Source: Diplonema japonicum (Eukaryota; Protista; Euglenozoa: Diplonemea). From it: a DNA stretch of 64,000 nt. Where the stretch lies: contig OZ025662.1 of the NCBI GenBank assembly GCA_964019335.1, positions 62,001-126,000 on the forward strand, in the 5' to 3' direction. The notes below the pieces were generated by a model, which saw only the letters and a list, made by a program, of their open reading frames with translations, searched no databases and was not told the DNA's origin. Within the stretch, counting starts at the first letter, position 1; each line of letters begins with the position of its first letter. The translations under genes were made by a program, and so were the position numbers. Below are positions 44,967-64,000 of this stretch, piece by piece.

Positions 44967-45414
44967 CTTTAATCTATCTTCTAATGTTACAATCCGGCGA
45001 TGAAGCAGCTTATTTTCATCGAGAACGGAAGCCCGCTGGTGCGAAAGCTGCTCAATCTGTTGAGTGTTGACCTTGACTTACTTTTGCTCATACTTCAAAA
45101 TTCTTCTCTTCCAACGCCTCGCTTAGTTCGTTTATTTTACTGTTGAGAATCTCGGGCGCGACGGTTAGTTCTTGAGGCTTGGTGCTCGATACAGCCTCGT
45201 CTTGCACATTCTGCGGTGGATAGGGTGACGGAGTTTGTATTTGTGTTTGATCTTCTCCATCACCACTCATGACCGGTACAGCTGGCGGCGATGCGATGTC
45301 TCGTCTAGTACTGATACTCCTTTTGGCACTGTTTGTTCCATAGGTGCCGGATGGTGACGTGGTGTCGGAGTCGTACACCGCATCCCACATGGCCTGAGGG
45401 GATCCTGCCAGCAT
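44967..45414 (-). CDS. Hypothetical coiled-coil protein, multi-exon (3' exons unresolved)
   Basis: MLAGSPQ... exon, 37-nt GT-AG intron at 45057-45093, then IEQLSHQRASVLDENKLLHRRIVTLEDRLK, followed by another GTATCC donor. Confidence 0.6.
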
Positions 45415-45510
45415 AATGAACTGCCTACAAACCCTGAAGAAGCTAGAACAGTGAGAATAAAGCAGACGAATAAATACTGTAAAAAGGTGCCTGGACTGCA
45501 CTATGAAGAA

Positions 45511-45585
45511 TTTTTTTTTCCCTTTTCTCAGGTGTTGCTCTCCATGGCGGCCCTGCAATGGTATTTTGGAAAAAAAAAAAAAAAA
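45511..45585 (+). repeat. Short copy of the family-B LINE terminal motif plus poly(A)
   Basis: CCTTTTCTCAGGTGTTGCTCTCCATGGCGGCCCTGCAWTGGTATTTTG followed by A-run; near-identical to 58681-58754. Confidence 0.85.
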
Positions 45586-47375
45586 GCCCTGGAAGCTGGG
45601 GTGACCGCAAAGGCAGCACATCATCACCACATCACCATCCCTCATCTTTCCCTCTCCACACACAATTCCTCCCCAAACAAGCACTCACAAACTCTCGTCT
45701 CTGGTGACGAAGTATTACCCAGTATCCAAAGGCCTGGACCTAGGGGTGACCACACAGGCAATCTTCACTTTCGCAGAAATCCCGCAGCCAGCGGTCCGCA
45801 CGGAAAACACTTACTGAGCTGCGGGGACATAGAAGCGAACCCCGGTCCAACCACCGAAAAGACAACAAGAGTTGAACACTCTCTCCCTCCCGTCCCCTCT
45901 ACTTCCTCTCTCTCACAGGCACACTCCAACACAACACCACCACCCAACAACATCAACGTACTGTCTCTCAATATCAGATCCCTAACGGTGAGCACCACAG
46001 CGCAGCTGCTGAAGGGCATTGAGACACACAACATCGACGTGCTCCTACTCCAAGAGACTTTCCTGAGGCCGTCAAAAGATATAACCGGAGTCTTCACTGG
46101 GTTCAAGGCATACCGCAGAGACCGAACACGACCGGTGAAAAGAGGAAAGCAAATCAGCGGAGGGGGTCTCGTCACACTGGTCAGAGAATCGATACCGTCG
46201 AAACAGATCGAAGTACCTCAGAAACCCAGCGACGTGACGGAAAGACTCGACGTAGAGATCTCGCTGCCCAACCGGAAGCCGTACAGACTCGTCAACCTGT
46301 ACCTGCCTCCGACAACGGGTAGAGACGGCGACGACAGGCCACCCCCCGAGAAATATTTCCGCCCGGCAGAGCTGCCTCATGACAGTCACACCATCATCGC
46401 CGGTGACATGAACGCCCACCACACGATGTGGGACAAAAGGGGCACACCGAACAAGCTGGGAGAAATACTGCACAGCTGGATGCTGCGATGGGGCTACAGC
46501 ACATGGAACAAGAGCAGCGAAGCCACGATCCTGAACCCGTCAGGAAACCCAACCTCTCCGGACATGGTAATGAGCGGCGCAGAGTTCGACAAATCTTCTT
46601 GGAGGACGTTGCCAGCAATGGGCTCAGACCACGTTCCAATGTTCTTCAGTCTGAGAGGGGGAGTCAGCCAACCGACCAGAAGAGTACTCTACTCTTGGGG
46701 GAGGGAGGCAAGGAGCGCGTACAGGGAGACGATGGAAGAAAAGTGCAGCAGGCTGCTCAGGGCCAGAGACCCGATAAGGCTAAACGCTGAGTTTCGCATG
46801 CTTCTTCTATCGGCAACCGAATCGTGCGTCCCCAGGAAAGGACAGAAGAAAGGGAAGGTTTGGTGGAACGACGAGATTGACGCACTCGCAAGGCGACGAA
46901 GCACACTGAAGGCGAAGCTGTTGTCCGAGGATCACGACGGGAACGACGAAGACCTGGCACGTCTAGCGGCGATGGAGGCAGTGAAAAAAAAAAAAAAAAA
47001 AAAAAAAAAAGGAACAGAAAAAAGTGAACCAAAAAGTACTAGTGAACCCTCTCCCCCTCCCCCTGTGTTTCCCACTATTACCCTGTCGTGCACCCCAACT
47101 TCTGTCTTCACCTTTCCCTGCCCCTTCACACACATCCCCCCGTATCATTTTCCTTTGTTTTGAATTTTCTACCTATGGTGCTGTTTGTTCTCTTCTTGGG
47201 CGAAAGGCTCATGATACCTTCACTTTGATTTTTGATTTCTCAAGCTCTGCTTTTCAACTCAGCTTTGTTGATTTTTTCTTCCTTTCCCCATTTTCCTTTT
47301 ATCCTTTTCAAACCTTCTCTGATGCTCCCGACCCGGCAGTGGAACAGATATTATTATTATTATTATTTAAAAAAA
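45586..47375 (+). mobile_element. Family-A non-LTR retrotransposon, 5'-truncated and internally deleted copy (A1)
   Basis: Near-identical to 48768-50163 (2A plus APE region), then jumps to A27 plus a block matching 53025-53183, and ends in (TTA)n. Confidence 0.92.
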
Positions 47376-47415
47376 GGTAGGGAAGGCTTAAAAAAAAAAA
47401 AAAAAAAAAAAAAAA

Positions 47416-48636
47416 ATGTCAAGTGACAAAATGACGAAGCCGAGCAAGGCGGGCGCCTCCAAGGGGCCCCTACCGGACGGGAGCGAGCCCGACCAAGACC
47501 CGCCGCAGCTAGTGCTGCAAACCACCGAGGTGGTGATCAGAAAGACCCCCCCCGAGACGACCCCCAAGACGAAGCCCACCCGGAAGCACTACGACGCAGT
47601 CGTAGCCCCGCTTGCCCCCAAGCCCACGTGGGCGGCCTTCATTGCGCAGGCTGGACTGGGGAAGTCGATGAGGTTCGACGGTGTCCTAGGCACCATCGTA
47701 ACCACAGGGACTCCCCCTCTTCAGTCCTACTCAGTGAGGGACGGAGACACTACCCATAAGGTGGTGTTCGAGGAGCAGAAGGGATCCTTTAAAAGGAAAC
47801 TACCGGGTGGGTCTCGTAGAGGGACCAAAATAGACTTCCGCAGGGAGTTCGGGGGGGCGAGCTGGTCGCAGGTGTGGGAGCTGGCCGACGAGAAGGAGGG
47901 GAGGAAGAAGAAGGCGAGAGAGGAGAAGGGGGCCAAAGCCGCAAAAAGGAAGGCCGAGGCCAGGGAAAGAGAGGAGAAGCTGGAGGCGAGGATCCAGGCG
48001 CTGGAGAGCGCCGAGAAGGAAGAGGGAGGCGGGATGGAGGACGACTGGGGCTGGAGGGAAGCCATGGACAGGCGGATTGCCGAGTTAGAGCAGGCGAGGG
48101 AACAGGCCGGGCTGTGGGAGAAGGCGTGCGAGAGGAAGGTGGAAGAGGTGGAGATGAGAGGGGTGCGTACGGACGAGAGGACTGAGGAGCTGAACAGGAG
48201 GGTGGGCCTGGTGGAGGGCGAGCTTGGTGGCCTGAGGGGGGAGATTTCTTCCTTGAAGGCGTCATCGGAGAGGACGGAGCGGTCGGTGGAGGAGCTGAAG
48301 CAAGGGATGAACAGATTACTCATCCACTTGACTACAGGAGCCCCCCCACCAGGAACCTCCGAGGAGGCAGACGGGTCCCCAGAACAGAGGGGACACGTGC
48401 CGTCCACCGATGGCGCTGACGAGGGGACTGACACCCCAGACTGCCCCAGGCACGCTGCGACACCGGAGAGAAAGGGTACCGTAGCACCTTTATGCTACGA
48501 CACCCCCCCACCAGCCGAAAGGCTCGTAGGAGTTGCCACAACAAGGCAGACAACCCTACACACCACCCCCTCGCAGACAACGCCCCTGCACAAGGTGAAC
48601 CCTCCCGTAAAAAGGAAGGTTGAAGGCCAGTACTAA
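47416..48636 (+). CDS. Family-A LINE ORF1 (basic region plus coiled coil)
   Basis: 406-aa ORF directly upstream of ORF2 with a central heptad region. Confidence 0.85.
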   Translation: MSSDKMTKPSKAGASKGPLPDGSEPDQDPPQLVLQTTEVVIRKTPPETTPKTKPTRKHYDAVVAPLAPKPTWAAFIAQAGLGKSMRFDGVLGTIVTTGTPPLQSYSVRDGDTTHKVVFEEQKGSFKRKLPGGSRRGTKIDFRREFGGASWSQVWELADEKEGRKKKAREEKGAKAAKRKAEAREREEKLEARIQALESAEKEEGGGMEDDWGWREAMDRRIAELEQAREQAGLWEKACERKVEEVEMRGVRTDERTEELNRRVGLVEGELGGLRGEISSLKASSERTERSVEELKQGMNRLLIHLTTGAPPPGTSEEADGSPEQRGHVPSTDGADEGTDTPDCPRHAATPERKGTVAPLCYDTPPPAERLVGVATTRQTTLHTTPSQTTPLHKVNPPVKRKVEGQY

Positions 48637-51600
48637 GGGCCGTGCAATCTCATTCAACACCCCTTTCACCCCCTTTCCCACACCGTCTCTCACTCCCTGT
48701 CCCTACTCCCAAACCCCCAACACTACACCCCATCTAAACGAAGATGAAGTACTACCCAGCCTCTCAAGCCCTGGAAGCTGGGGTGACCGCAAAGGCAGCA
48801 CATCATCACCACATCACCATCCCTCATCTTTCCCTCTCTCCACACACAATTCCTCCCCAAACAAGCACTCACAAACTCCCGTCACCGGTGACGAAGTATT
48901 ACCCAGTATCCAAAGGCCTGGACCTAGGGGTGACCACACAGGCAATCTTCACATTCGCAGAAATCCCGCAGCCAGCGGTCCGCACGGAAAACACTTACTG
49001 AGCTGCGGGGACATAGAAGCGAACCCCGGTCCAACCACCGAAAAGACAACAAGAGTTGAACACTCTCTCCCTCCCGTCCCCTCTACTTCCTCTCTCTCAC
49101 AGGCACACTCCAACACAACACCACCACCCAACAACATCAACGTACTGTCTCTCAATGTCAGATCCCTAACGGTGAGCACCACAGCGCAGCTGCTGAAGGG
49201 CATTGAGACACACAACATCGACGTGCTCCTACTCCAAGAGACTTTCCTGAGGCCGTCGAAAGATATAACCGGAGTCTTCACTGGGTTCAAGGCATACCGC
49301 AGAGACCGAACACGACCGGTGAAAAGAGGAAAGCAAATCAGCGGAGGGGGTCTCGTCACACTGGTCAGAGAATCGATACCGTCGAAACAGATCGAAGTTA
49401 TTCAGAAACCCAGCGACGTGACGGAAAGACTCGACGTAGAGATCTCGCTGCCCAACCGGAAGCCGTACAGACTCGTCAACCTGTACCTGCCTCCGACAAC
49501 GGGTAGAGACGGCGACGACAGACCACCCCCCGAGAAATATTTCCGCCCGGCAGAGCTGCCTCATGACAGTTACACCATCATCGCCGGTGACATGAACGCC
49601 CACCACACGATGTGGGACAAAAGGGGCACACCGAATAAGCTGGGAGAAATACTGCACAGCTGGATGCTGCGATGGGGCTACAGCACATGGAACAAGAGCA
49701 GCGAAGCCACGATCCTGAACCCGTCAGGAAACCCAACCTCTCCGGACATGGTAATGAGCGGCGCAGAGTTCGACAAATCTTCTTGGAGGACGTTGCCAGC
49801 AATGGGCTCAGACCACGTTCCGATGTTCTTCAGTCTGAGAGGGGGAGTCAGCCAACCGACCAGAAGAGTACTCTACTCTTGGGGGAAGGAGGCAAGGAGC
49901 GCGTACAGGGAGACGATGGAAGAAAAGTGCAGCAGGCTGCTCAGGGCCAGAGACCCGATAAGGCTAAACGCTGAGTTTCGCACACTTCTTCTATCGGCAA
50001 CCGAATCGTGCGTCCCCAGGAAAGGACAGAAGAAAGGGAAGGTTTGGTGGAACGACGAGATTGACGCACTCGCAAGGCGACGAAGCACACTGAAGGCGAA
50101 GCTGTTGTCCGAGGATCACGACGGGAACGACGAAGACCTGGCACGTCTAGCGGCGATGGAGGCTGAGCTGGACAGGGCGATAACGAGCGGGAAGCAGGCT
50201 GCCTGGGGCGACTACACCAAGAAGTTGTCCAAGGACGGAAACCTGACGCAAGCCTTCTCGGTCATCCGCAGATTCGACGGTCGCAGCGAGAAGCCACCAA
50301 TAGCCCCGCTCCGACGAGGAAACGGTATCGCCACCACCGACAGGGAGAAGGCCAGTGTACTCGTCGAACACTACGCGAGGGCCTGCTCCCCAAGGACGAC
50401 TGCCAAGTCGGAGGAAGTGATCACCACCATCAAGAAGGACGCGAAGCCCGGGACAGACAACGACTTCCCCCTGGTAACGAAGGACGAGCTGGACTCGGTG
50501 CTGCGAAGGCTGAAGAAGGGCAAGGCTCCGGGCCCAGACGGCATCTACAACGAAATGCTGAAGTACCTGGGACCGGTGGCCAGGGAAGTTCAACTCCTCC
50601 TCTACAACTCATCCCTCCAGACCGGTGTCGTCCCTGCCGAATGGAGGCGGTCTTCCATCATCCCCCTCATGAAAAAGGGCAAAGACCAATCCGAACCCGC
50701 CTCGTACAGGCCGATCGCGCTGACGTCAAACATCGTGAAGACGTTGGAGCGAATAGTCAAGGACAGGATGTGCTTCCTGCAGGACACAGGACGGGTAAGG
50801 CAATTGCACACATCGCAGGCGGGTTTCCGGAAAGGGAGGTCCACGGAGGAAAACGTGCTGTACGCCGCCTCAAAGCTCAAAAGTGTCAGACTGAGCCAAG
50901 GTCTGGGGGGTCTCCTGCTGTTCGACTTCAAAGGAGCCTTCGACACAGTCTGGCACAAGGGAGTGATCGCAAAGCTGATAGGCGACGGATACCCTCCCAA
51001 GCTCGTGAAATGGATCACCTCTTTCCTCGACCAACGTAAAGCCTCCGTCTGTGTGAACGGGGAACACGGCTGCGTGAAGACAATGACAGGGGGCGTACCC
51101 CAAGGCACCATCCTGGCCCCGCAGCTCTTTTCCATCTACGTCAACGACCTGGCCAGGTTGTACAGGAAGGCTGGAATCGACGCGGTAGTGTACGCAGACG
51201 ACATAGCGATAGTGCTGGAGGCGGGGAGTCCTGCCGAGCTGAACAAGAAGGTGCAACGCGCGGTGAGCCTCACGGAGCGATGGTGCGAGACGTTCTCGAT
51301 GAAACTGTCCCAGGAAAAGACAGAGTTCATGCCGGTAGAGGGACAGTTCTGGAACTCGCACGACAGTCTCGCAAACCTCATCAACGCCCGCTTCCCCTCG
51401 AGTGGGGCGAAAGTCAAGGTGGTACGCGAGGCTAAATATCTTGGCGTCACCTTCGACGAAAGCATGAACTTCCACGAGCATGTGCAGAAGGTGAAGGGAA
51501 AGATCAACAGCCGTCTTCGCCTGCTGCGCAAACTCGCCGGAACAAGGTGGGGCTGCCGCAAGCACACCCTAAGGACGCTGTACCTGACGTACGTCCAACC

Positions 51601-52945
51601 GGTTCTGCGCTACTGTCTCGGTGCTTACGGCAACTTCGTGGGACATGCTGCTCTGGCCGAGTTCGACTCGCTACAATACACAGCAGCGAGGTTGATAACG
51701 GGATGCTTCGACAAGACTTCCGCGACGGTGACCAGGTCAGAGGCGGGCATCTGGGAGATTGAATCCTTGCTGGAACACGACACCCTGGTGCTCTACGAGA
51801 AGGCACAGCGTCAACCGGGGACAACAGCGGAGAAGGCAACAAAGATATCCGGGGGTCAGATGTGGTACGGGAAAAGCTGGCGAAACACCGCGCTCGACTT
51901 GGCGAAGAGTCACGGGATGCCGGAACGCGAAGACCTACCACACCACTCAGTCACTCAGAGCGCAGACCTGCAGCTCCCTCCATGGGTCCAACCCAAAGTC
52001 CTGTTCCACCCCGACCTAGTCCGCAAGGTACACAAGAAGGACGAAAAAAGTCTCAAACTCCGAGCGGCCTTCGAATCGATCAGGAGGCACGGCATCCCAG
52101 ATGTGATCGTCTACACCGACGGGTCAGTCACCGGACACAGGAACGGCGGTTCGGCAGCTGTGATAAGGATCGGGTCTGACACACCGAAGCAGGCACGCAA
52201 GAGCGGAGGAGCAGTGACTTCGGCCTACCGATGCGAACTGAAAGCGCTGAACCTGGGGCTGCAATTGACACTGTACCATACCCGGAGACAAGGTGTGACG
52301 ACCGGAGTAGTGCTGCTGTGCTCGGACTCCCAGTCGGTGATCAGAAGACTGATGCAGGGCCACAGAGAGATGAGGCAGAAGGAGGAACTGCTGGCTTGGA
52401 AATGGCTGGACGCGCTTGACCGCCAAGGCCTCTCCACCATCATCCAGTACGTTCCCGGACACTGCGGCCTACCAGGTAACGAGCAAGCCGACCGACACGC
52501 CAAACGCGCCGCAAAGGAGTCGACACCGGACGGACCGACGGACCTGATGACCACAAAGAGCCTCATCAAGAGGTCGGTGAACCGCGACTGGGCAGCCTCG
52601 TGGGAGAAGACGGGTCGGGACAAGAAGTACCGAGAGGAGATCGGCGCGAGGTACCTCCCCTTGAAGGAACTGTCCTGCAGACACGATGAGGTACAGATAA
52701 CGAGACTGCGAACGGGCAGGAGCCACCTGACTTGCGGTTTCCTGTCGAAACCCGTCCAGAATGACATACGTTGCCTCTCGTGCCATTCGATCCAGGACAG
52801 ACACCATCTGCTGATCGGGTGCCCAGCTGGAGACAAGGTCCGCGAAGAGATCTTCGGGGATGACATCCCCACGACCACGAAGGAGATGCTCACAATGAGG
52901 GTGAGTGAAACCGCCTCCTACCTGAAGAGGATGGACCTCATCTGA
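48611..52945 (+). CDS. Family-A LINE ORF2: 2A peptide, AP endonuclease, reverse transcriptase, RNase H, C-terminal CCHC
   Basis: LLSCGDIEANPGP; SLNVRSL, LLQET, AGDMNAHH, GSDH; KAPGPDGI, YRPIALTS, QAGFRKGRS, DFKGAFD, GVPQG, YADD, YLG; YTDGS, CELKAL, SDSQS, VPGHCGLPGNEQAD; CLSC..HLLIGC. No ATG before the APE domain. Confidence 0.95.
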   Translation, partial: KGRLKASTKGRAISFNTPFTPFPTPSLTPCPYSQTPNTTPHLNEDEVLPSLSSPGSWGDRKGSTSSPHHHPSSFPLSTHNSSPNKHSQTPVTGDEVLPSIQRPGPRGDHTGNLHIRRNPAASGPHGKHLLSCGDIEANPGPTTEKTTRVEHSLPPVPSTSSLSQAHSNTTPPPNNINVLSLNVRSLTVSTTAQLLKGIETHNIDVLLLQETFLRPSKDITGVFTGFKAYRRDRTRPVKRGKQISGGGLVTLVRESIPSKQIEVIQKPSDVTERLDVEISLPNRKPYRLVNLYLPPTTGRDGDDRPPPEKYFRPAELPHDSYTIIAGDMNAHHTMWDKRGTPNKLGEILHSWMLRWGYSTWNKSSEATILNPSGNPTSPDMVMSGAEFDKSSWRTLPAMGSDHVPMFFSLRGGVSQPTRRVLYSWGKEARSAYRETMEEKCSRLLRARDPIRLNAEFRTLLLSATESCVPRKGQKKGKVWWNDEIDALARRRSTLKAKLLSEDHDGNDEDLARLAAMEAELDRAITSGKQAAWGDYTKKLSKDGNLTQAFSVIRRFDGRSEKPPIAPLRRGNGIATTDREKASVLVEHYARACSPRTTAKSEEVITTIKKDAKPGTDNDFPLVTKDELDSVLRRLKKGKAPGPDGIYNEMLKYLGPVAREVQLLLYNSSLQTGVVPAEWRRSSIIPLMKKGKDQSEPASYRPIALTSNIVKTLERIVKDRMCFLQDTGRVRQLHTSQAGFRKGRSTEENVLYAASKLKSVRLSQGLGGLLLFDFKGAFDTVWHKGVIAKLIGDGYPPKLVKWITSFLDQRKASVCVNGEHGCVKTMTGGVPQGTILAPQLFSIYVNDLARLYRKAGIDAVVYADDIAIVLEAGSPAELNKKVQRAVSLTERWCETFSMKLSQEKTEFMPVEGQFWNSHDSLANLINARFPSSGAKVKVVREAKYLGVTFDESMNFHEHVQKVKGKINSRLRLLRKLAGTRWGCRKHTLRTLYLTYVQPVLRYCLGAYGNFVGHAALAEFDSLQYTAARLITGCFDKTSATVTRSEAGIWEIESLLEHDTLVLYEKAQRQPGTTAEKATKISGGQMWYGKSWRNTALDLAKSHGMPEREDLPHHSVTQSADLQLPPWVQPKVLFHPDLVRKVHKKDEKSLKLRAAFESIRRHGIPDVIVYTDGSVTGHRNGGSAAVIRIGSDTPKQARKSGGAVTSAYRCELKALNLGLQLTLYHTRRQGVTTGVVLLCSDSQSVIRRLMQGHREMRQKEELLAWKWLDALDRQGLSTIIQYVPGHCGLPGNEQADRHAKRAAKESTPDGPTDLMTTKSLIKRSVNRDWAASWEKTGRDKKYREEIGARYLPLKELSCRHDEVQITRLRTGRSHLTCGFLSKPVQNDIRCLSCHSIQDRHHLLIGCPAGDKVREEIFGDDIPTTTKEMLTMRVSETASYLKRMDLI
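48995..49033 (+). other. 2A-like (StopGo) peptide LLSCGDIEANPGP; second copy at 45811-45849
   Basis: Exact match to the D(V/I)ExNPGP consensus just upstream of the APE domain, as known for L1Tc/ingi elements. Confidence 0.9.
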
Positions 52946-52990
52946 GACTCTCACGACCGCCGAGCCGCTGACCGCAATCGCAGGACGTAG

Positions 52991-53026
<36 letters not shown>

Positions 53027-53567
53027 AACAGAAAAAAGTGAACCAAAAAGTACTAGTGAACCCTCTCCCCCTCCCCCTGTGTTTCCCATTATTACCCTGT
53101 CGTGCACCCCAACTTCTGTCTTCACCTTTCCCCGCCCCTTCACACATCCCCCCGTATCATTTCCCTTTGTTTTGAATTTTCTAAGGCTCCGCCGCCCAAC
53201 AAAGCTGGCTGAAGGGGATGCCTCCGTGCCAGTGTGCCGCTCGTGAGGGCGAGCACGGACGAGGTACCCCACTCCTCAAAAACCCGGAGGTTCGCCCGAA
53301 GGGTGCTGGCTTGGGAAGCGGGCTGGAGAGCTGCCGGGGTCACGGAGGTGGGCGAAGTCGCGAACACTGGAGCCCACGAACCGGCCCCACCTCCGTCCTC
53401 GGTACGTATGGATAGTTTAGCGGAAGTTTCAAGGTTATCACATTCCTTTCCTTTCCCCCTTTCGTTAGATACAGGGAGACCCTTGGTCCACCTGTTCTGT
53501 CCCCCCAGCCTTTGCTTCGCACGTCAGTGGTTCATTTATTATTATTATTATTTTAAAAAAAATAACA

Positions 53568-53574
53568 GCCGCTT

Positions 53575-53623
<49 letters not shown>

Positions 53624-53640
53624 AATCCCAGGTGGTGGCA
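53568..53640 (+). tRNA. trnF-GAA: tRNA-Phe (GAA)
   Basis: 73-nt cloverleaf: D arm GCTC/GAGC, anticodon arm TCAGA-CTGAAGA-TCTGA, T arm CCTGG-TTCAATC-CCAGG; followed by a T7 Pol III terminator. Confidence 0.95.
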
Positions 53641-53824
53641 TTTTTTTATCTATGTAGCTTGTGCTGCATCTCTGTAAGCTGCTGCAACTAGTTGACAAGT
53701 CCTGTGTAGTCAGCCCATTGCATTTTCTGCCGAAATCTTATCCTACGATCACGAAACTCCTGCTTGTGGACAAGGATTTAGGGAACACCTAGAGAAGGAG
53801 TAAGAACCCCAATCAAAAAAAACA

Positions 53825-54240
53825 CAAAAATACCTCACAGACTGCGTTGCCTCTCTTTGAAAAAAATGACAAAAATAGTGAGAGGTCGAAAGTTGTGAAG
53901 GTCCAAGGCCTCGGAGACAAGCATGCCATAACAGGGCAATGCTGGTCTGTCATGAAAAACCCCCTGGAAGGCTGGAGTTTAATAGCTTCGGAAACCCCTT
54001 AGGCTCTGGGTTCAAGAATTGTTCCTCCCCTTCTGACAACCTGATCGAGTTGTCGGGGTGGCCCAACGAAGCCGTGCTGCTCATAGACGACGTCACCCCA
54101 CCAACCCGGGCTCTGCTTTGGGACAGGCGAAGAGGGCTGAATTACGTTATTCCCTAAGTTGAGTGAGAGAAACAGGGGCTGGCAGAAAGCCCCAGGGAGG
54201 TATTGCTCCTGAGTGAAACATGTTGAGGTGAGTGGAAGTG
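53825..54240 (-). mobile_element. Inverted, diverged relative of the family-B 3' UTR (truncated LINE or SINE-like)
   Basis: 54096-54222 is a reverse-complement homologue of 58440-58612; also shares CATTGCCCT and a terminal GGTATTTT(T)G. Confidence 0.7.
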
Positions 54241-54310
54241 GCAAACAATGCAGAAGAGGGACACAACAGTTCATGATCTGCTCTTGGAGGCGCCCTGCGA
54301 TTGTAATGTG

Positions 54311-57300
54311 TTCGGTTGGAAGCCGTCGTCCATCATCCGACGCTCTGACACGGCGTTCCAGGGCACGAGGCAACTCGTGTTCTTCATCGTCGCCGACGCC
54401 CCGCCCCCCAAGGCCAGGACATGGCTCTTCGGCTCTCGTCTCGTTCGACTGCACGACGCGGAAGACCACCCGAGCGTCACGCTCCCGCCCCGCACCAACA
54501 AGAAGGCTCCACCCGCGGCTCAGACGCCGACGCCGGCCCCTGGCCCCACGGTGCAGTCCACAGGGCTGCCGAGCACCAATCCGTGGTCATCTCCACCGAG
54601 CTCGGTTGCCCCTCCGCCACTTGGCACTGTGACTCCGGTCTCCTCTGCGGCTTCCCCGACCACGACACCTCCCCGTGACTCCCAGAAGAAGAATCCCGCA
54701 CCGGAACCTGAGGTCCCGGCGCTCCTCGCGCTGATCCAGTCGATGCAGACGACCATCGACGGTTTGCAGGCGACGGTCCGCGACCTCCAGGAGAAGATGG
54801 CAGCGTCACTTGGCGCGCCGGCGCCATCTGCAGACGGTGCTGGGCGGACGGCAGTTGCTGGGAAGGGCAAGGGCGGCAAGGCTGGGTCCAAGGCAGGGAC
54901 GAAGGGGCACCAGGCGCAGGGCGTAAGCACGCCAGGCCCCTACCCGACATCGACGGAGCAAGGGGGCGGAAGGGGACGCGCCCAGTCGCTGGCTGGCGAC
55001 TCTGCTACCCCCAATGGGGTCGGCCGTGGACGGGCAGCCTCTGTGGGCCCGGCCTCCGCCCCTGCCAATTGAAGGGGTCCCGCTGAGCAGGGGGGGCGGC
55101 AGATCGACGACCACGCCCCCTCTCCTGGTCTCCCGCGCATACAGCCGAGGAGACACCTTCCACATCACTTGTACGACGTCCTCCCTTCCTTGATCCCTTC
55201 CTTACTTGAACGGATGTCGGCCAGGGACCTGCTGGGGCTGCTTGGGCTGGTTGAGACGAACCCCGGTCCACCTAAGAAGCTCCCACCCCCGAAGCCGAAG
55301 GGACTCAGGGTCCTGTCCTGGAACTGCAACGGTCTTGCCGCCAAGTGGTCAACCGTGTCCTACCACGCTGTCCTACTGACGCTGGATATCATTATGATCC
55401 AGGAGACACACCTTAGGGAGGGGCATGAGACACCATACCTGCCTGGATACACGTCCTACAGGAGGGACCGCACAACACCGGTGACGGACGGCTCTGCGAC
55501 GAGAGGCGGTGGTGTCATCACGTATGTCCGTGACTGCCTTGCCTCGGAGGAAGCTCCTTTCGTACTCCCTGAAGGTGACAGTGTCACTGAGCGATTAGAC
55601 GTGAGGATCTCCTGTGTGAAGCGCGTCCCGGTCACCCTCTCCAACGTGTACCTCACGCCTGTGAGTATAAGCAGAGGAACAAGGGACCCCGAGTACCTAC
55701 GGCCGGGCAGCCTACCTGTGGGGAAGAACACGATCGTTGCTGGCGACTTCAACGCACACCACAGCTCTTGGGATGCCAAGGTGACAACGCCCAACGAAAG
55801 GGGGAACGTGGTCAGGGACTGGCTTGACACCCACGGCTACACCGTCTACAACAACCGTGACGAGCCGACGCGGGACTCACCGCCACGCGTTCTGGACCTG
55901 GTTGTGGGACGTTGTGCGGAACTGGAGCCGAGGACGTTGGGGACGTGGGGCTCTGATCACAGCCCGGTTTCCTTCCGCTTGCCGCTTGAGGACGCCTACT
56001 GCTCGGAGCGACCCTGCCCTACCTGGAACTTCAAAAAGGCCAGGTGGGACGACTTCACCGCGGCCGCCGCCGCCCTTCTGACCAGGATCGACACGAAGGC
56101 CCACATCGACTCCTTCACGAAGGAGGTAACAGAGGCTCTTCTGCATGCAGCTGACGACCACGTTCCGCTTTGCGGAGTGCGACGAGGCCCGACCCCCTGG
56201 TGGACGGCCGAACTCGAAGACGCCTTCGAAGAACGGAACGCCTTGCGGGATCGCTTCCTCAAGTCGGCTGAGACTGAGGACGACAGCGTAGCGGCGGTGT
56301 ACAAGGCGAAGGTCAAAGAGGTGAATCAACTCTTGACCGAGTCGAAGCGCGCGGCCTGGGGTGAGATGGCGGCTGACCTCAGTCGGAGCAAGGACCTCGG
56401 GTCTGCGTTTAGGGCGGTGAAGAAGCTGGACGGCAGACACCGCAGACCGCACCTTCCCATTCTCGAGGGGAGGTTCGTGACGGACAAGGCGAAAGCCGAC
56501 CGCCTGGGGGCTCACTTCGGCAAGCTCTAGGGTGGTGATGGGGACGCGGTGGACGTAGCTCCTTCGACGAACGTGCTTGGGTGCCACGCCTTTACGGTGT
56601 ATGATCTCACCCGCGGTCTGGGAAGGATGAAGACACGCAGTGCAGCGGGTGATGATGGCATCTTCGCGGAGATGCTTCTCCACCTCGACCAACCCTCGCT
56701 CGGGGTTCTACTTCTGCTCCTCAATCGCTCATGGCAGGCGGGGATTGTGCCGGGTGCCTGGAAGAAGGGGGTGATTGTTCCAGTGGCGAAGGCAGGGAAG
56801 GACGCCACGTTGCTTGCATCGTACCGTCCCATATGTCTCACTAGCTGTCTTTGTAAGCTGCTTGAGAGGATGATAGAGGAGAGGCTTACCTTTCTCCTAG
56901 ACTCTAGCGCGTCGGGCGTTGAGGGTCTCCACGACAGCCAGGCTGGCTTCAGGGCCGCTCCACGGAGGAGCAGGTGGCGTCCCTGACCGGGTGTCGAGGA
57001 ATAAAGACAGTCGGCGTCTGTCGGCTGCCCTGCTGTTTGACTTCTCATCTGCGTTTGACCTGGTTCAGCACGAAGCTCTCCTGGGCATGATGCGGAGGAA
57101 GGGGATCCCTGAGCCCTTCGTCGAATGGACGCGCTCCTTCCTCTGCGGTCGTACGGCGGCGGTCACGGTGGGTCGCTCGCGAGGGTCGACGACGAAGGTG
57201 AGGAGAGGGGTGCCCCAAGGGTCTGTGCTGGGACCCGTCCTTTACACCATCTACGTCGACGAGCTAGCCAGGTTGCTGGTTGGGATGGCGGACCTGTCGG

Positions 57301-58754
57301 TTCTTTATGCCGACGATGTTGCGGTGGTGGTCTCAGCCGGGCAGGGCGACCTGGCTGGTCTTGAGTGAGGGGCCCAGGCTGTGATGGACGCGGTTGAGGG
57401 CTGGTGTGGGAGACGGGGCATGCTGCTGAGCTCCAGCAAGTCGCAGGCAGTGTGCGTTCCCTATCAGAAGCGGCTTAATGTCTACTTCTCTTCGTCGCGT
57501 GTCCCGCTTTGCCCGGGGGGGCCTTCCAGGACCCTGTCCTTAATCTTGGGGTTGGGGCCTGTGGGACCTTGTCTGGCGTCCGTGAGCTGTCTGGCTTTCG
57601 GGTCGTGGAGGCGGGTGGCAAACGGTCCACCAGACGTGGAGCCGGCTGGTGACCGCGGCGCGCACGCAGGGGACACCGGTGGTCCTCCAATTTGTGCCCT
57701 CCCACTGTGGGGTGGACGGGAACGAGAAGGCTGACGCTCTGGCCGTGGAGGGAACGAAGCGGAAGCAGGACAGGCCCTCCCTTGACTACCGATCAGTGAG
57801 GGCCCTGGTGCGACGGTGGGTGGTGCGGAGGTCCGCGGAGCTCATAACATCCCTCGCCCACAACTACGCGGTGGCGACCGAGCTTCGGTCCGCGCACTTC
57901 CCCCTTGGCTTCCCCAGACAAGCTGAAACGGTCATCTCGCGGCTGCGGATTGGTCACTCGGCTCTCTTCTTCGGCTTCCTGCAGACTGCTGGCCCGAACA
58001 GGAAGCACAAGGGTGTGCTCCGGTGCCCAGCCTGCCACGCAGCACCGATGTCCAGGGAGCATGTTGTCGGTGGGTGCCCTGTGATCGGGAGGGGGGCGAT
58101 CGACACTCCTGCTGGTACTCCCTCCCTAGCCTTCTCCCTGTCGAGACGCGTGACCCAGATCTACGACCTCATTGTTGAGTCTGGCCTGCTCGCCTGGTCA
58201 CGCTCCGGACTGTTCACCTCGCCATCATCCCTGGCGTCTACAGACGTCACTGCACCTTCAAACGTGCCGCCCCCTCCTCCGGTCTCTCTTGACGCCGGTC
58301 CCGCGGCCCCCGTGCTGCGCTAAGGGATCGCCCGCGTGTGTGTAAAGTGAAATGTTGTGTTTTCCACTTTCCTTTCCCTTCCTTCACCTTCCTCTCACTG
58401 TTTCCCATTTCCCCTTTTTTTTATTTTCACACTCACCAATGATTCGCTCAATAGGAGCAATACCTCCCTGGGGGGCTTTCCGCCGGAGGTTCCAGCCAAA
58501 GAAGGACATCCAGCTGGAAGGTAGGCCCCCGTTTTTCTCTCACTTGACTGAGGGAATAATGTAATTCAGCCCTCTTCGGCTGTCCCAAAGCAGAGCACGG
58601 GTTGGTGGGGGACCAGGGCTCCTCCTGCTTGCAGAAGCCTGGTCCATTGCCCTCCCTATTTCCCCATGGTTTCCCTTCACCTTTTTTTCCCCTTTTCTCA
58701 GGTGTTGCTCTCCATGGCGGCCCTGCATTGGTATTTTGAAAAAAAAAAAAAAAA
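54311..58754 (+). mobile_element. Family-B non-LTR retrotransposon, 5'-truncated decayed copy (B1)
   Basis: ORF1 C-terminal part (to TGA 55070-55072), then APE, RT (YADD) and RNase H/zinc finger remnants. Nonsense TAG at 56528 (TAC in B2), frameshift near 56950, TGA at 57366, internal deletion; 3' UTR ends in poly(A). Confidence 0.9.
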
Positions 58755-58795
58755 TAATAATAATAATCTGAAAAAGAAAAGAAAAGAAAAGAAAA

Positions 58796-61648
58796 ATGGG
58801 CAAGAAGAAAGACAAGCACAAGGAGAAGGCAAAGCCGGAAGGGAACGGGGCCAGCACGCAGCTGGCCCAGTCCAAGGCCAGGGAGGAGCGGCGGGTGGAG
58901 AGGATGCTCCGCAGCGCTGGAGCAGCCGGGGAGCTGGGGCAGCTCCTGACGCCGGAGCACCGGGAGAAGATGACGGGGGTGGTCACCGTAATTGACCTCC
59001 TCACGCCCGACGCCGCCGCCGCTACAGCCGGCCCAGCGACACCTGTCGCCTCCACCCCGACCGGCTCCGTCAAAAGGCCGGTTTCGCCTGACGCCAGCGT
59101 CGCCACCCCGACCTCCAGCAAAAAAGCTAGGAGGAAGGCCGCCAGAGCCGCGCGCGCTGACGCTGCCGCCGAAGCCGCACACATAGCTGACGCCACACAC
59201 CCCCTCGAAGCCGCACGCACTGCGGCCGACGTCGAACTCGCGGGAATCGCTGCTGATTTGGAAGCTGCACGCGAGTCGGCCGACGTGGTAGCTGCAGAAA
59301 TAGCTGCTAAGATGAAGGCTGCGCAGGAGGTGGCTGATGCTGCTGTTGTCAAAATGGCAGCCGAGACGGAAGCTGCACGCGTGGCTGGTGTGGAGGCTGC
59401 TCGCAGAGCAGTCGAGGCTGAGGAGAAGGCTCTGCGCGAGCGGTCTACTGCACGACTTGCGGCAGAGGAGAAGGAGGCTGCGCGTGCTGCGGCCGAGATG
59501 AAAGCAGCCGAGGAGAAGAAGGCTACAGCCGCAGCCGCTGCAGCCGAGAAGAAGAAAGCCGCAGCCGCCGCCGCCGCCGAGAAGAAAGCAGCAGCCGCCG
59601 CCGCCGCCGAGGAGAAGGCCGCCGCCGAGAAGAAAGCCGCTGCCGCCGCCGCCGCCGAGAGGAAGGCCGCAGCCGACGCCGCCAGGAAGCAAGCTGCAGC
59701 CGCCGCCGCCGAGAAGGAGACCGCAGCCGCAGCCGCCACCGCCGAGGAGAAGAAGAAGGTCGCAGCCACCGCCGCCGCCGAAAAGGAAGCCGCCGCAGCC
59801 GCTGCCAAAAAGGAGGAAGCTTTGAGGTTGGCGGCCGCCAAGAAGGCAGATGCCCAGAAGGTCGAGGACGAAGCAGTCGCGAACGCTTCCGCCAACGCGT
59901 CAACAGACCAAGGCACGCTCCTCCTCAGCTCAGACTCTGACACCAGCTCTGGCCCTGAGGAGATGGAGGACGACCCTGCCCCTGCCCCTTCCACAACCCC
60001 GCGATGGGACCTGGTGCCAGACACATGGGACGCCCCGATCTACACCAACGTGTCCCCCCCGACGGAAACATCCCGCGCTGTCATTGCGCTCGACGATCCC
60101 GCCGGAATGGGGGTCGTGTGCTCCGCGTTACCTACGGCATCCATCACCTTTGTCCTTATGACAGAGGTCCCCGGTGTCACCACCCCCAGCGAGATTGTCA
60201 TGGTCTCTGGGTCGCGCGCAGTGAACAGGAGGGTCCACGTCTCCACGTTCGGGCTGGACCCCCCCACCTACACCCCGCCTTCCACCTTCAACAGCGGATC
60301 GGAGGTCGTCTACGTCTGTGTCAGTGCAGACAGCCTGAAGGAGGCGAAGGCCAGGGTCCTGGAGCTCGCCAAGGCTCAGGGCGCGGTGGTGGAGGATCGT
60401 GCGGTCTTCCGCCCAAGGAAGTTCGGTGAGGAGGAACCGCGGGCGAGGCACTGGACCCACGAGGTGGGACTGCGCCTGCAAGCAGCACACGTCCACGCCG
60501 TCCTGCGCCGGTCCGGGGACGGCTGCTTAATGCGGACGACGGAGAGACGCGGGGGGTACGCTTATGTACCCATCGTGGCGGAAGGGAGGGCGGATGCCTT
60601 TCGGATTGCGGGGACGCTGGGTGGGTTGTCTCTCGGGGTGGCGCACCGTAAGGGATGGACTGTGCGGTGCCTACCGGAGACGGAACAGCGGCTCCGGAAG
60701 GCCCTCGCAAAACAGCGCACGAAGCGCAAGTTTTTGCTTACCGGGGCCCCGCCGTCCATCACCAGGGCGGCCTTCGACGAGATGATGGACCACATCGGCT
60801 GGAAACCATCCTCCGTCCTGCGGCGCACGCAGACGATGTTCCAGGGCACGAGGCAACTCGTGTTCTTCATCGTCGTCGACAGCCCGCCCCCGAAGTCCAG
60901 GACGTGGCTCCTTGGGGGGCGCCTTGTCTGCCTCCGTGATGCGGACGACCACCCGACCGTCAAGCCGCCCCCTCTCATCAACAGGACGACACCTGCATCT
61001 GCACCTGCGCTTGCAACGTCCTCGACCCCGGCACCCACATCTTCTCATGTACCTGCACCTGCGCCTACACCTGTACCTGACCCGGCACCTGTATCGGCGT
61101 CGACACCCTCGGAGACTGGCCCTGCGGTGAAAGCAACTGGGCTTCCTCCCACCAGCCCGTGGGCGTCCATACCGAGCTCGGTGGCTCCCCCCCAGCTCGA
61201 CACTGTGACGTCCCCTACACCGCCCCGCAACGTGTCTGCGGGAAACAAGGAGGGGGTCCCTTCCGGGTCGCCTGAGGTCGCCGCTCTCACTGAGCTCGTC
61301 GCCACGCTGAAGGAGTCGATCGTCGGGCTGCAGAGGACGATCGACTCTCAGCAGGAGATGATCTCCGATCTGCGGACGACGCTCCGCCTCCTCCTGCCGC
61401 AGGCGGCCACGCTGACGACGGGAACGGCAGTGCCGCGGGACCCTACACCGGGGGTGACGACGACACACGACAGTGTCTGGAAAGGGAAGGGGAAGGGGAA
61501 GAAGGGGGCTCCTCCTCTCGCTACGACCTCTGAGGCTGCGGTGACGAACCTGGGTACGAGGGGGCGGGCCAGGTCGTTCGCGGAGACCAAAGATCTCTTC
61601 ACCAATGGGGTCAAGGGGCGCTCTGCCTCCATGGGTCCATCCAATTGA
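58796..61648 (+). CDS. Family-B LINE ORF1
   Basis: 950 aa: (EKKAAAAAA)n helix, globular middle, Pro/Thr-rich linker, coiled coil, KGKGKG tail. The C-terminal third is homologous to 54311-55072. Confidence 0.88.
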   Translation: MGKKKDKHKEKAKPEGNGASTQLAQSKAREERRVERMLRSAGAAGELGQLLTPEHREKMTGVVTVIDLLTPDAAAATAGPATPVASTPTGSVKRPVSPDASVATPTSSKKARRKAARAARADAAAEAAHIADATHPLEAARTAADVELAGIAADLEAARESADVVAAEIAAKMKAAQEVADAAVVKMAAETEAARVAGVEAARRAVEAEEKALRERSTARLAAEEKEAARAAAEMKAAEEKKATAAAAAAEKKKAAAAAAAEKKAAAAAAAEEKAAAEKKAAAAAAAERKAAADAARKQAAAAAAEKETAAAAATAEEKKKVAATAAAEKEAAAAAAKKEEALRLAAAKKADAQKVEDEAVANASANASTDQGTLLLSSDSDTSSGPEEMEDDPAPAPSTTPRWDLVPDTWDAPIYTNVSPPTETSRAVIALDDPAGMGVVCSALPTASITFVLMTEVPGVTTPSEIVMVSGSRAVNRRVHVSTFGLDPPTYTPPSTFNSGSEVVYVCVSADSLKEAKARVLELAKAQGAVVEDRAVFRPRKFGEEEPRARHWTHEVGLRLQAAHVHAVLRRSGDGCLMRTTERRGGYAYVPIVAEGRADAFRIAGTLGGLSLGVAHRKGWTVRCLPETEQRLRKALAKQRTKRKFLLTGAPPSITRAAFDEMMDHIGWKPSSVLRRTQTMFQGTRQLVFFIVVDSPPPKSRTWLLGGRLVCLRDADDHPTVKPPPLINRTTPASAPALATSSTPAPTSSHVPAPAPTPVPDPAPVSASTPSETGPAVKATGLPPTSPWASIPSSVAPPQLDTVTSPTPPRNVSAGNKEGVPSGSPEVAALTELVATLKESIVGLQRTIDSQQEMISDLRTTLRLLLPQAATLTTGTAVPRDPTPGVTTTHDSVWKGKGKGKKGAPPLATTSEAAVTNLGTRGRARSFAETKDLFTNGVKGRSASMGPSN

Positions 61649-64000
61649 AGGGGCCCCGCAGAACAGGGGGAGCAGCAGATCCACGACCATGCTCCCTCTC
61701 CTAGTCTCCCTCGCATCCTCCCAAGGAGACTCCTACCTCTCTGTTTCTTCACCGACTTCTCTGCACTGATCCCCACCCTACTCGGGAGGATGTCCGTCAG
61801 GGACCTGTTGGGGCTGCTTGGGCTGGTCGAAACAAACCCTGGCCCACCCAAGAAGCTGCCGCCCCCGTCGCCTAAGGGTCTCAAGGTTGTCTCGTGGAAC
61901 TGCAACGGCCTCGTTGCGAAATGGACCGTCGTATCTCGCCATGCTGACTTCTTGTCGCTGGACATCATCATGATACAGGAGACGCACCTGAGGGAAGGGC
62001 ACGACACGCCACACCTGCCTGGGTACAGGTCATACAGGAGGGATCGGTTGACACCGGTGACTGACGGCACTGCGACGAGGGGTGGTGGTATTGTCACGTA
62101 TGTCCGCGACGATCTTGCCTCGGAGGAGGTTCCGCACGTACTCCCGGCTGGGGACTGTGTCACTGAGAGACTGGATGTGAGGATCTCCTGCGAGAAGCGT
62201 GAGCCGATCACTCTCTCCAACGTTTACCTTACACCGGTAAGCGCGAGCAGAGGCACGAGGGACCCTGAGTACCTGCGGCCTGGCAGCCTTCCCATGGGGA
62301 AGAACACAGTCATAGCGGGTGACTTCAATGCTCACCACAGCTCCTGGGACGCCACGGTGACGACGCCGAACGAGAGGGGGAACGTGGTCAGGGACTGGCT
62401 GGACACCCACGGGTACTCCGTCTACAACGACCGCAACGAACCGACGAGGGACTCGTCACGACACGTTCTGGACCTGGTTGTGGGGCGCTGCGCGAAGCTT
62501 GAGCCGAAGACGCTGGGCACGTGGGGCTCCGATCATAGTCCCGTATCCTTTCACCTGCCTCTTGAGGACGTCTACCGTTCGGAGCGCCCCTTCCCCACCT
62601 GGAATTTCAAAAAAGCCAGATGGGATGACTACACTGCTGCTGTTGCCCGCCTGCTTGCTGGTGTTGACACGGCGGCTCCGATTGACTCTGTCACGAAGGG
62701 GTTTACACAAGCCCTTTTGACTGCGGCGAACGACCACATTCCCCTCTGTGGGATGCGACGTGGCCCGACCCCCTGGTGGACTGCTGAGCTCGAGGACGCC
62801 TTCGAAGAGCGGAACACCCTGCGCGAACTCCTGCTTCAAGAGGCGGACGTGGTGGTGGAGGAGTACAGGGCGAAGGTGAAGGAAGTCAACCGACTCCTTG
62901 ACGAGACGAAGCGTGAGGCATGGGGAAGGATGGCGGCCGACCTCAGCCGGAGCAAGGACCTCGGGGCTGCGTTCAGAGCGGTGAAGAAGCTGGACGGCAG
63001 GCACCGAAAGACACACCTTCCTGTACTCGAGGGAAGATTTGTGTCGGACAAGGCGAAGGCCGACCGGCTGGGGGCGCACTTCGCTAAGCTCTACGGCAGG
63101 CGTGGTGACGGGAACTCGAAGGACGCCGCTCCTTCTGCAAGCAGACTCGGGTGTCAAGCCTTCACCGTGGACGACCTCACCCGCGGCCTGAGAAGGATGA
63201 AGACGCGCAGCGCGGCCGGGGAAGACGGAATCTTCTCGGAGATGCTCCTACACCTGAACACGGACTCCCTCGGTGTCCTCCTTCTACTCCTCAATCGCTC
63301 CTGGCTGATGGGTGTCGTCCCCGGTGCCTGGAAGAAGGGAGTGATCGTCCCGGTACCGAAACCTGGAAAAGATGCGACTCTCTTGGCTTCCTACCGGCCG
63401 ATCTGCCTGACCAGCTGCCTCTGCAAGCTGCTGGAGAGGATGATCGAGGAGAGGCTCACGTTTCTTCTTGACGCGGACGGGACGGGAGTCGAGGGACTCC
63501 ACGACAGCCAGGCTGGTTTCAGACGCGGCCGCTCCACGGAGGAGCAGGTGGCAACCCTCACTGAGTGCATGTCGAGGAACAAAGACGATCGACGTCTCTC
63601 GGCCGCTCTGCTGTTCGACTTCTCTTCTGCCTTCGACCTGGTGCCCCATGGTGCCCTGCTGGACAAGATGCGAGGGAAGGGTCTCCCCGAACCCTTCGTG
63701 GAGTGGACGCGGTCCTTTCTATGCGGCCGTACTGCTGCGGTCACGATTGGACGGTCGAGGGGGTCAACGACGAAGGTGCGACGGGGTGTCCCCCAGGGCT
63801 CTGTCTTGGGTCCCATCCTGTACACCATCTACGTCGACGAACTCGCCAGGAGACTGGAGGGACTGGCGGACGTCTCGGTGCTCTACGCCGACGACGTGGC
63901 GGTTGTGATCTCCTCTGGACAAGGGGACGTGGCTGGGCTGGAGCGGAAGGCGCAGGCGGTGGTGGATGCGGTTGAGGACTGGTGCAGGGAGCGTGACATG
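61649..64000 (+). CDS. Family-B LINE ORF2 (2A-like, APE, RT), partial; absent from the ORF track because it has no stop in the window
   Basis: GLVETNPGP (ends 61846), SWNCNGL, IQETHL, AGDFNAHH, GSDH, YRPICLTS, QAGFRRGRS, GVPQGSVLGP and YADD at 63884. Frame spot-checked at 63062 and 63884. First ATG is at 61790. Confidence 0.92.
61665..61731 (+). promoter_or_regulatory. Conserved tandem stem-loops 3' of the ORF1 UGA (candidate readthrough stimulator); homologue at 55089-55154
   Basis: 10-bp stem 61665-61674/61690-61699 with two compensatory pairs relative to B1; second stem AGTCTCC/GGAGACT. Confidence 0.7.

Follow-up and report, generated by a model that had tools for sequence, protein, structure and literature searches.

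A diplonemid LINE joins ORF1 and ORF2 through an in-frame UGA, a covarying RNA hairpin, and a 2A-like motif: possible readthrough expression of ORF2

How open reading frame 2 (ORF2) is translated from the bicistronic RNA of a long interspersed nuclear element (LINE) is a long-standing open question. We analyzed 64,000 nt of the Diplonema japonicum genome (GenBank assembly GCA_964019335.1, contig OZ025662.1, positions 62,001 to 126,000 of the forward strand; hereafter the window), in which a LINE family, here called family B, carries ORF1 and ORF2 in one frame separated by a single UGA. Ingi and L1Tc, also from euglenozoan hosts, share with family B an ORF2 with apurinic/apyrimidinic endonuclease (APE), reverse transcriptase (RT), and RNase H domains and a 2A-like site just before APE, which in family B lies about 65 residues into the frame behind the stop (PMC3708506, PMC3894237). 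A 2A before APE is established in Ingi/L1Tc and in other clades, and few 2A elements have an ORF1 (PMC3894237). The Ingi clade is described without ORF1, whereas family B has an in-frame ORF1 of 950 aa and a motif without Asp12 (PMC3708506, PMC3894237). RNase H and a C-terminal zinc finger, by which Ingi elements are recognized, were both found in P0021, the transcriptome counterpart of family B ORF2, but the 950-aa ORF1 departs from their single-ORF organization. ORF2 may be called Ingi-like by its domains and by these descriptions, rather than by an RT tree; ORF2 homologue, metagenome, and similar searches returned no named Ingi or L1Tc reference.

Other systems resemble the junction itself. 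Among the Paramecium LINEs, those of Group 3 place both ORFs in the same frame, and readthrough was proposed for them from consensus sequences; Groups 1 and 2 have a +1 offset like a second LINE family in the window, family A (PMC5405496). These elements differ in forming a separate ciliate clade, and the cited passages describe no 2A, hairpin, or selection test for them (PMC5405496). The gag-pol junction of gammaretroviruses and the nsP3/nsP4 junction of alphaviruses place a single in-frame stop with 3' RNA structure between an abundant protein and a polymerase, but their spacers are 8–12 nt and their stop contexts UAG-G or UGA-C, whereas family B has 16 nt and UGA-A (PMC3159437, PMC13517186). 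Pfam scans of ORF1 and ORF2 of B2, the family B copy examined most closely here, found no protease domain. The gammaretroviral and alphaviral products are released by a viral protease. SART1 and mammalian L1 likewise have bicistronic LINE RNAs, and SART1 needs a structure downstream of the ORF1 stop; its stop and start overlap as UAAUG, whereas family B has no AUG near the stop and a spacer under coding selection (PMC5972666, PMC10275272). A 2A-like peptide stands between LINE ORF1 and ORF2 domains in ORF1p-2A-ORF2p of Cordylochernes scorpioides, but these are described as single proteins, and the cited passages mention no stop or readthrough step (PMC13405545). Candida Tca2 has gag, stop, and pol in frame, a purine-rich 3' context, and a predicted structure, and readthrough was first proposed for it; it differs in being a long terminal repeat (LTR) element, and its reporter result, discussed below, is a cautionary precedent (PMC7175516).

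Family B is represented in the window by B1 and B2, two subfamilies of a diplonemid LINE that are about 79% alike from the stop onward, and all comparative evidence for the family comes from these two sequences only. All features lie on the + strand. B2 ORF1 (58796 to 61645; 950 aa from ATG 58796) shares 99% identity with the transcriptome proteins P0020 and P0022, both labelled Diplonema japonicum, which terminate at the same residue. It is followed by a single in-frame TGA (61646 to 61648; next letters AGG G), the candidate readthrough codon, beyond which the ORF1 frame stays open to the window end and carries the APE and RT domains. This frame comprises a 47-codon linker part without in-frame ATG (61649 to 61789), a 19-residue 2A-like peptide beginning at the only in-frame ATG (61790 to 61846), and ORF2 (61847 to 64000), which was assigned by Pfam domains and its match to P0021 and is interrupted by the end of the window. 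Counted from the stop, codon 66 (ending at 61846) is the last of the motif GLVETNPGP, and a skip site would fall between codons 65 (Gly) and 66 (Pro). A first-pass annotation, made from the sequence alone, had described exactly this arrangement, with ORF1 and an APE-RT ORF2 in one frame split by one TGA and 66 open codons up to GLVETNPGP before the endonuclease, and both statements were confirmed.

The same junction, with TGA, linker, stems, and 2A-like motif, is present in B1 (55070 to 55270; TGA at 55070–55072), whose ORF2 is broken further down. Frame and linker length are the same as in B2, with zero indels, unlike the ORF1 tails just upstream of the stop, whose alignment is full of gaps. 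When 4 of the 24 listed runs were compared, the TGA was unchanged in X7, X11, and X13, and X15 gave no cover; contig depth in X7, which is not a copy number, was 1758 for the B2 junction and 670–1540 for B1-type junctions. The comparison supports the TGA as a feature of the family and not a mutation of the B2 copy alone.

Three other accounts of the TGA were rejected. A copy-specific nonsense mutation is contradicted by the divergence of B1 and B2 under selection (ratio of nonsynonymous to synonymous rates, dN/dS, 0.11–0.14 in APE), through which both copies share the TGA. For UGA reassignment, TGA is the final codon in 4 of the 13 long host ORFs selected out of 51, and also in A2 ORF2, and UGA is therefore an ordinary terminator in this host. 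For selenocysteine recoding, an Rfam scan gave no match to a selenocysteine insertion sequence (SECIS), the B2 3' end lying outside the window and the B2-like 3' end of B1 inside it.

New in this analysis is the protein-like evolution of the 47 codons before ATG 61790. Between B1 and B2, these codons have a dN/dS of 0.23, with proportions of synonymous (pS) and nonsynonymous (pN) differences of 0.53 and 0.19, and the other two + frames give 1.22 and 1.30. Differences at codon positions 1, 2, and 3 number 11, 10, and 18. The linker ratio is close to that of the APE region and of the ORF1 core (0.26, indicating purifying selection there), and its pS compares with 0.51 in APE. Under a null matched for transitions and transversions, 17 amino-acid changes were observed against 23.3 expected (P = 0.006); a Fisher test gives 9e-5, and the matched null was judged more honest. 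In sub-windows picked after the data were seen, the matched null gave P = 0.003 for codons 1–30, P = 0.008 for codons 11–30, and P = 0.48 for codons 31–47. For the 23 linker codons that are unpaired in the structure model, it gave P = 0.033. That the 47 codons form an open frame is, by itself, weak evidence (P about 0.32 in nucleotide shuffles).

The residues are unevenly conserved. Residues 1–7 after the stop are identical in B1 and B2, with 3 synonymous changes, codons 31–39 are all changed (9/9), and codons 40–66 are highly conserved. Immediately before the ATG, residues 40–47 show conservation alongside 5 synonymous changes (P = 0.04, in a window selected after the data were seen), so that the constrained 2A-like zone would span 27 residues and ribosomes would arrive from upstream of ATG 61790. 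Three linker variants were seen in X7 and X11, two synonymous and one a replacement in loop 1 of the RNA structure described below. Judged from these substitution patterns, ribosomes that enter upstream of ATG 61790 very probably translate the linker, and translation most likely starts well upstream, before about codon 11–20, which does not imply crossing of the stop itself.

The RNA behind the stop is predicted to form two hairpins. Stem 1 (61665 to 61699; 10 bp, 61665–61674 with 61690–61699; 15-nt loop) starts 16 nt after the stop, and all 4 B1/B2 differences within it make two compensatory A-U/G-C pairs, which bears out, in two sequences, the covarying stem of the first-pass annotation. Its pair probabilities are 0.84–1.0 in B2 and 0.68–0.78 in B1, and its shared fold exceeds chance (0 of 400 column shuffles, 2 of 400 codon shuffles). 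Stem 2 (61703 to 61731; 7 bp in B2, 15-nt loop) had also been predicted; it is present with a 6-bp core (61704–61709 with 61725–61730), but this core is invariant and so shows no covariation. When each copy is folded singly, the energy of the 205-nt junction is unremarkable (z = -0.72 and -0.23). Among 15 overlapping windows that cover the stretch between the stop and the start of APE and reach into that domain, the two-copy fold of the junction ranks first (z = -2.95; 1 of 400 codon shuffles). The two-copy signal comes mainly from stem 1, and the 3' half alone gives none (210 of 400 shuffles). As a weak lead, the two-copy consensus fold offers 61804 to 61819 as a possible long-range partner of 61648–61667; this helix, partly present in both 205-nt folds, has a 13-nt spacer and a loop of about 136 nt, much like the 12 and 154 nt of Sindbis virus.

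Loop 1 (61684–61689) can in addition pair with 61824–61829, the codons for Leu12-Val13-Glu14, with 6 bp compatible in both copies. This pseudoknot is without covariation and is of a kind that the folding model cannot score; if real, such base pairing might explain why the 2A-like motif lost Asp12. An Rfam scan of 45000–64000 at E up to 1 gave no match resembling the hepatitis delta virus (HDV) ribozyme. The conserved 5' leader of the Ingi clade carries an HDV-like ribozyme.

We assign a probability of roughly 0.5 to the reading that ribosomes read through the UGA to make ORF2. A minority of ribosomes would then pass the UGA and enter the linker and ORF2, possibly stimulated by the two hairpins, and readthrough would set a high ORF1p:ORF2p ratio. 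The 2A-like site, which lacks Asp, would free ORF2p only in part, and an inactive site would leave ORF1p and ORF2p fused, in the manner of Gag-Pol. In favor of readthrough, a single conserved in-frame stop with coding selection downstream was found in both subfamilies; further points are that only one UGA interrupts the frame and that ORF1 is 950 codons long. Also counted in favor are the mosquito kelch readthrough context, UGA-AGC (PMC3159437), and the description of reinitiation starts after long ORFs as usually out of frame with the first ORF (PMC10275272).

Several observations weigh against readthrough. Leaky stop contexts include UGA-C and CAR-YYA; the context here is UGA-AGG, not UGA-C, and of the two candidate stimulators the robust stem lies at 16 nt and the 13-nt helix is weak. 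Described readthrough stimulators have spacers of 6–12 nt (PMC3159437), and the 11–12 nt behind a stop sit inside the ribosome (PMC13517186); the 16-nt spacer to stem 1 exceeds the known range, so that the hairpin weakens the readthrough model. The long-range helix is not robust, since its probability falls to 0–0.25 once 66 nt upstream are included in the fold, and its sole compensatory pair is lost with the majority B2 letter at 61808. Taken by themselves, codons 1–10 do not reach significance (P = 0.21), and the predicted pairing is likewise compatible with the three synonymous changes in them; the reverse-strand frame that shares third positions gives a ratio of 0.51, as expected of a mirror frame, and a scan for synonymous-site conservation found no 9-codon window at P < 0.05. 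In Tca2, gag-stop-pol with a predicted pseudoknot gave no readthrough in a reporter (PMC7175516). The comparison is confined to two copies, and readthrough of the B2 UGA is a prediction from sequence. Metagenome, viral contig, and protein searches found no third family B subfamily, and no fused ORF1-ORF2 relative was found among proteins of 825–2625 aa.

The earlier claim that readthrough sets the ORF1:ORF2 ratio keeps the linker coding selection and the conserved TGA on its side, but there is a rival that was left unlisted at that time. It consists of termination at the UGA and then AUG-independent reinitiation at AGG 61649 or another early near-cognate codon, aided by the hairpin, with the linker as an Ingi-type N-terminal leader. 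We regard this rival as doubtful, although it explains the linker coding signal equally well. Stem 1 starts 13 nt after the AGG, and a distance of ~14 nt places a start codon in the P-site (PMC13270972), so the hairpin spacing fits AGG reinitiation at least as well as readthrough. An AGG start would put 65 residues before the 2A-like site, and LINE 2A sites typically lie about 40–80 aa from the ORF2 N-terminus (PMC3708506). SART1 couples stop and start through a downstream structure, reinitiation in caliciviruses can make do with codons other than AUG, and ORF2 of L1 is believed to start independently of AUG (PMC5972666, PMC5009743). The AGG, one mismatch from AUG, is identical in B1 and B2, but such identity in two copies has about an even chance. 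Furthermore, the last 120 nt of B1 and B2 ORF1 contain no UGGGA motif of the type of the termination upstream ribosome-binding site (TURBS), and the preceding ORF1 is 950 codons long. AGG is, moreover, among the weakest near-cognate starts.

Reinitiation at ATG 61790, which the first-pass annotation had named as the alternative, or initiation there resembling that at an internal ribosome entry site (IRES), would make the linker a structured non-coding spacer and the shared frame incidental. Both copies retain this ATG, at which the annotation of P0021 begins, and the called start of the D. ambulator protein P0001 is likewise a Met, 14 residues ahead of the 2A-like site. Codons 31–39 are unconserved, and the mammalian L1 spacer is 63 nt long (PMC5972666). 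However, the coding-type evolution of the 47 codons before the ATG argues against plain reinitiation at this site, which leaves unexplained the third-position bias and the synonymous first-position changes upstream, both of which persist in unpaired codons (P = 0.033). Met has a single codon and here sits within a conserved peptide, and family A has no such ATG. We therefore consider initiation at ATG 61790 improbable.

Very improbable is a separate RNA for ORF2, produced by spliced-leader (SL) addition or by a cis-splice at a post-stop AG (e.g., 61649–61650) that removes the stop, although diplonemids do add SLs to their mRNAs by trans-splicing and also have cis introns (PMC10161547). The B2 linker is pyrimidine-rich and has 10 AG dinucleotides, but the contigs examined, which drop rare forms, showed no splice-like joint at the junction, and SL addition alone would leave the linker non-coding. 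P0020 bears the suffix.p2, which we take to denote the second ORF of its transcript and which is consistent with a multi-ORF RNA.

The second step of the proposed double recoding depends on the 2A-like site. In family B it has L6, L7, G11, V13, E14, a tolerated T15, and NPGP directly before APE, and no other part of the junction is as conserved as this peptide (a single amino-acid change over its 19 codons, where 4.7 were expected; P = 0.003). The class A core D(V/I)ExNPGP is absent, both B1 and B2 reading L-V-E-T-N-P-G-P. The Leu in place of Asp12 in both copies weighs against activity. In saturation mutagenesis of P2A and F2A, no D12 substitution reached the activity threshold of 0.6, and of 1969 single-deviation peptides in Class X only 139 scored >0.7 (10.64898/2026.09.24.754024). 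Natural 2A variants with other core residues are active in their own context (10.64898/2026.09.24.754024), and leucine-rich eukaryotic 2A-like peptides often lower protein output and do not skip cleanly (PMC13405545). The earlier suggestion that the site frees ORF2p without a protease thus retains a motif conserved in sequence and position, but lacks the Asp12 that is essential in P2A and F2A. Going by the motif, meaningful skipping has a little under even odds, and readthrough combined with active StopGo, the full double-recoding model, is consequently unlikely as a whole. P0001 of D. ambulator carries a doubly variant 2A-like motif, GDVHRHPGP, before APE, so that diplonemid LINEs carry several non-canonical 2A forms.

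Family A shows a different junction in the same host. In copy A2, ORF2 is in the +1 frame with a 26-nt overlap with ORF1 (48608 to 48636), and it opens at 48611 at AAA AGG A, a candidate +1 shift site known from one copy. In this geometry, the Lys tRNA could re-pair perfectly one base on with AGG waiting in the A-site, resembling the Ty1 +1 site, CUU AGG C (PMC5009743). A canonical 2A motif, GDIEANPGP, occupies residues 133–141 of the A2 ORF2 frame (49007 to 49033; 45823–45849 in copy A1), and the first Met of this frame is residue 328, inside APE, which begins near residue 175. Because family A has no ATG before APE, production of ORF2 without AUG initiation appears to be required in this host. 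The first-pass view that family A reaches the same logic by frameshifting agrees with the +1 site and the missing in-frame ATG, in one copy; a copy-specific indel or a non-AUG start is a candidate alternative for the +1 offset. At its broadest, the proposal is that diplonemid LINEs arrived twice at a protease-free version of the gag-pol strategy of retroviruses, through UGA readthrough assisted by RNA structure in family B and through a +1 frameshift of the Ty1 type in family A. In both families StopGo would then free ORF2p, in family B at an active Asp-less 2A. This proposal is tentative, and we consider it unlikely in this complete form.

The family A linker also contains an in-frame internal duplication of 18 codons (48743–48796 and 48890–48943), in which the coding signal was not significant (P = 0.29). 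A CT run located between the duplicated units shows a 2-nt difference between A1 and A2.

Relatives of family B were sought in several collections. An ORF2 search gave 19 matches among 7994 scored, the best non-self match being a Diplonema ambulator protein at 44%. The ORF1-plus-linker search gave 2 matches among 7992 scored, both the element itself, and HMMER over 1.84 billion representatives gave 1 match, again the element itself; none of 3492 candidates was a homologue of the linker plus APE at near lengths. A metagenome scan yielded 4 loci at 28–36% identity, of which the one examined (L001) is a distant LINE whose ORFs overlap in different frames and which has an ATG of its own; it is uninformative. 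No relative was found in viral contigs. The D. papillatum genome paper, in the part cited, mentions LINE ORFs without such junction detail (PMC10161547). In the open full-text literature (subscription papers and Repbase were not covered), a stop, a structure, and a 2A at one LINE junction, or this diplonemid family, were not found described. The earlier claim that the combination is novel for non-LTR elements stands to that extent, but was overstated in so far as readthrough had already been proposed in Paramecium (PMC5405496) and ORF1-2A-ORF2 noted in Cordylochernes (PMC13405545).

The element meets its host in a window of trans-spliced-type unidirectional genes, with four LINE copies from 45.5 kb onward: A1, which is 5'-truncated; A2, in which both ORFs are intact; B1, which is broken as well as truncated; and B2, which the end of the window interrupts. 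A Pfam scan placed APE (PF03372/PF14529) and RT (PF00078) in one ORF above cut-off, as in LINEs, and further LINE hallmarks are the dispersed copies, 5' truncation (A1, B1), A-rich starts (A1, A2, B2), and poly(A) ends (A1, A2). P0021 (1383 aa) is 99.7% identical to B2 ORF2 and adds RNase H (PF00075) and a C-terminal CCHC pattern, read by eye as the zinc-finger pattern C-x2-C-x8-H-x4-C. B2 ORF1 consists of an Ala/Lys/Glu-rich, coiled-coil-like half, a central domain without known family, and a Pro/Thr-rich tail. It matched no Pfam family at E 0.1, its RRM-like Atlas matches were all <0.9 and are leads only, and the predicted fold of its domain was unusable (pLDDT 33). About ten imperfect repeats of 27–33 nt lie inside B2 ORF1 (59501–59848) and code for an Ala/Glu/Lys helix.

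The flanks of the copies are partly shared. The same 73-nt sequence ending in an A-tract precedes A1 (45512–45584) and B2 (within 58682–58796), and the poly(A) ends of A1 and A2 lead into the same 156-nt sequence (46984–47139 and 52998–53153). In A2 (47334–47416) and B2 (58682–58796), the ORF1 ATG stands directly behind the A-rich tract. The shared flanks and A-tract starts suggest targeting of A-tracts within another repeat and almost no 5' untranslated region, features that would resemble Candida Zorro3 (PMC7175516). The B1 3' end (57628–58320) is 99% identical to the P0021 C-terminus and the B1 middle about 81%, and from this split B1 appears to be either a chimera or the carrier of a separate truncated B2-type insertion. 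B1 is flanked on both sides by an 83-nt inverted repeat, 90% complementary (54096–54178 and 58528–58610). A tRNA gene at 53568–53640, between A2 and B1, is the sole Rfam match above the gathering score.

Taken on its sequence, the family B junction appears to be a real, previously unreported-looking variant of LINE ORF2 expression. In its compact 200-nt cassette, readthrough, non-AUG reinitiation, and AUG reinitiation predict different outcomes for three point mutants, with B1 as a natural second allele and a frameshift-type sister family, A, alongside. If the model is true in full, this would be a LINE with two tandem recoding events at one junction, in which an Ingi-like ORF2 is coupled to an ORF1 and a 2A is active without the Asp thought essential. 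Even if the full model fails, the data indicate that ORF2 is made without AUG initiation in a euglenozoan.

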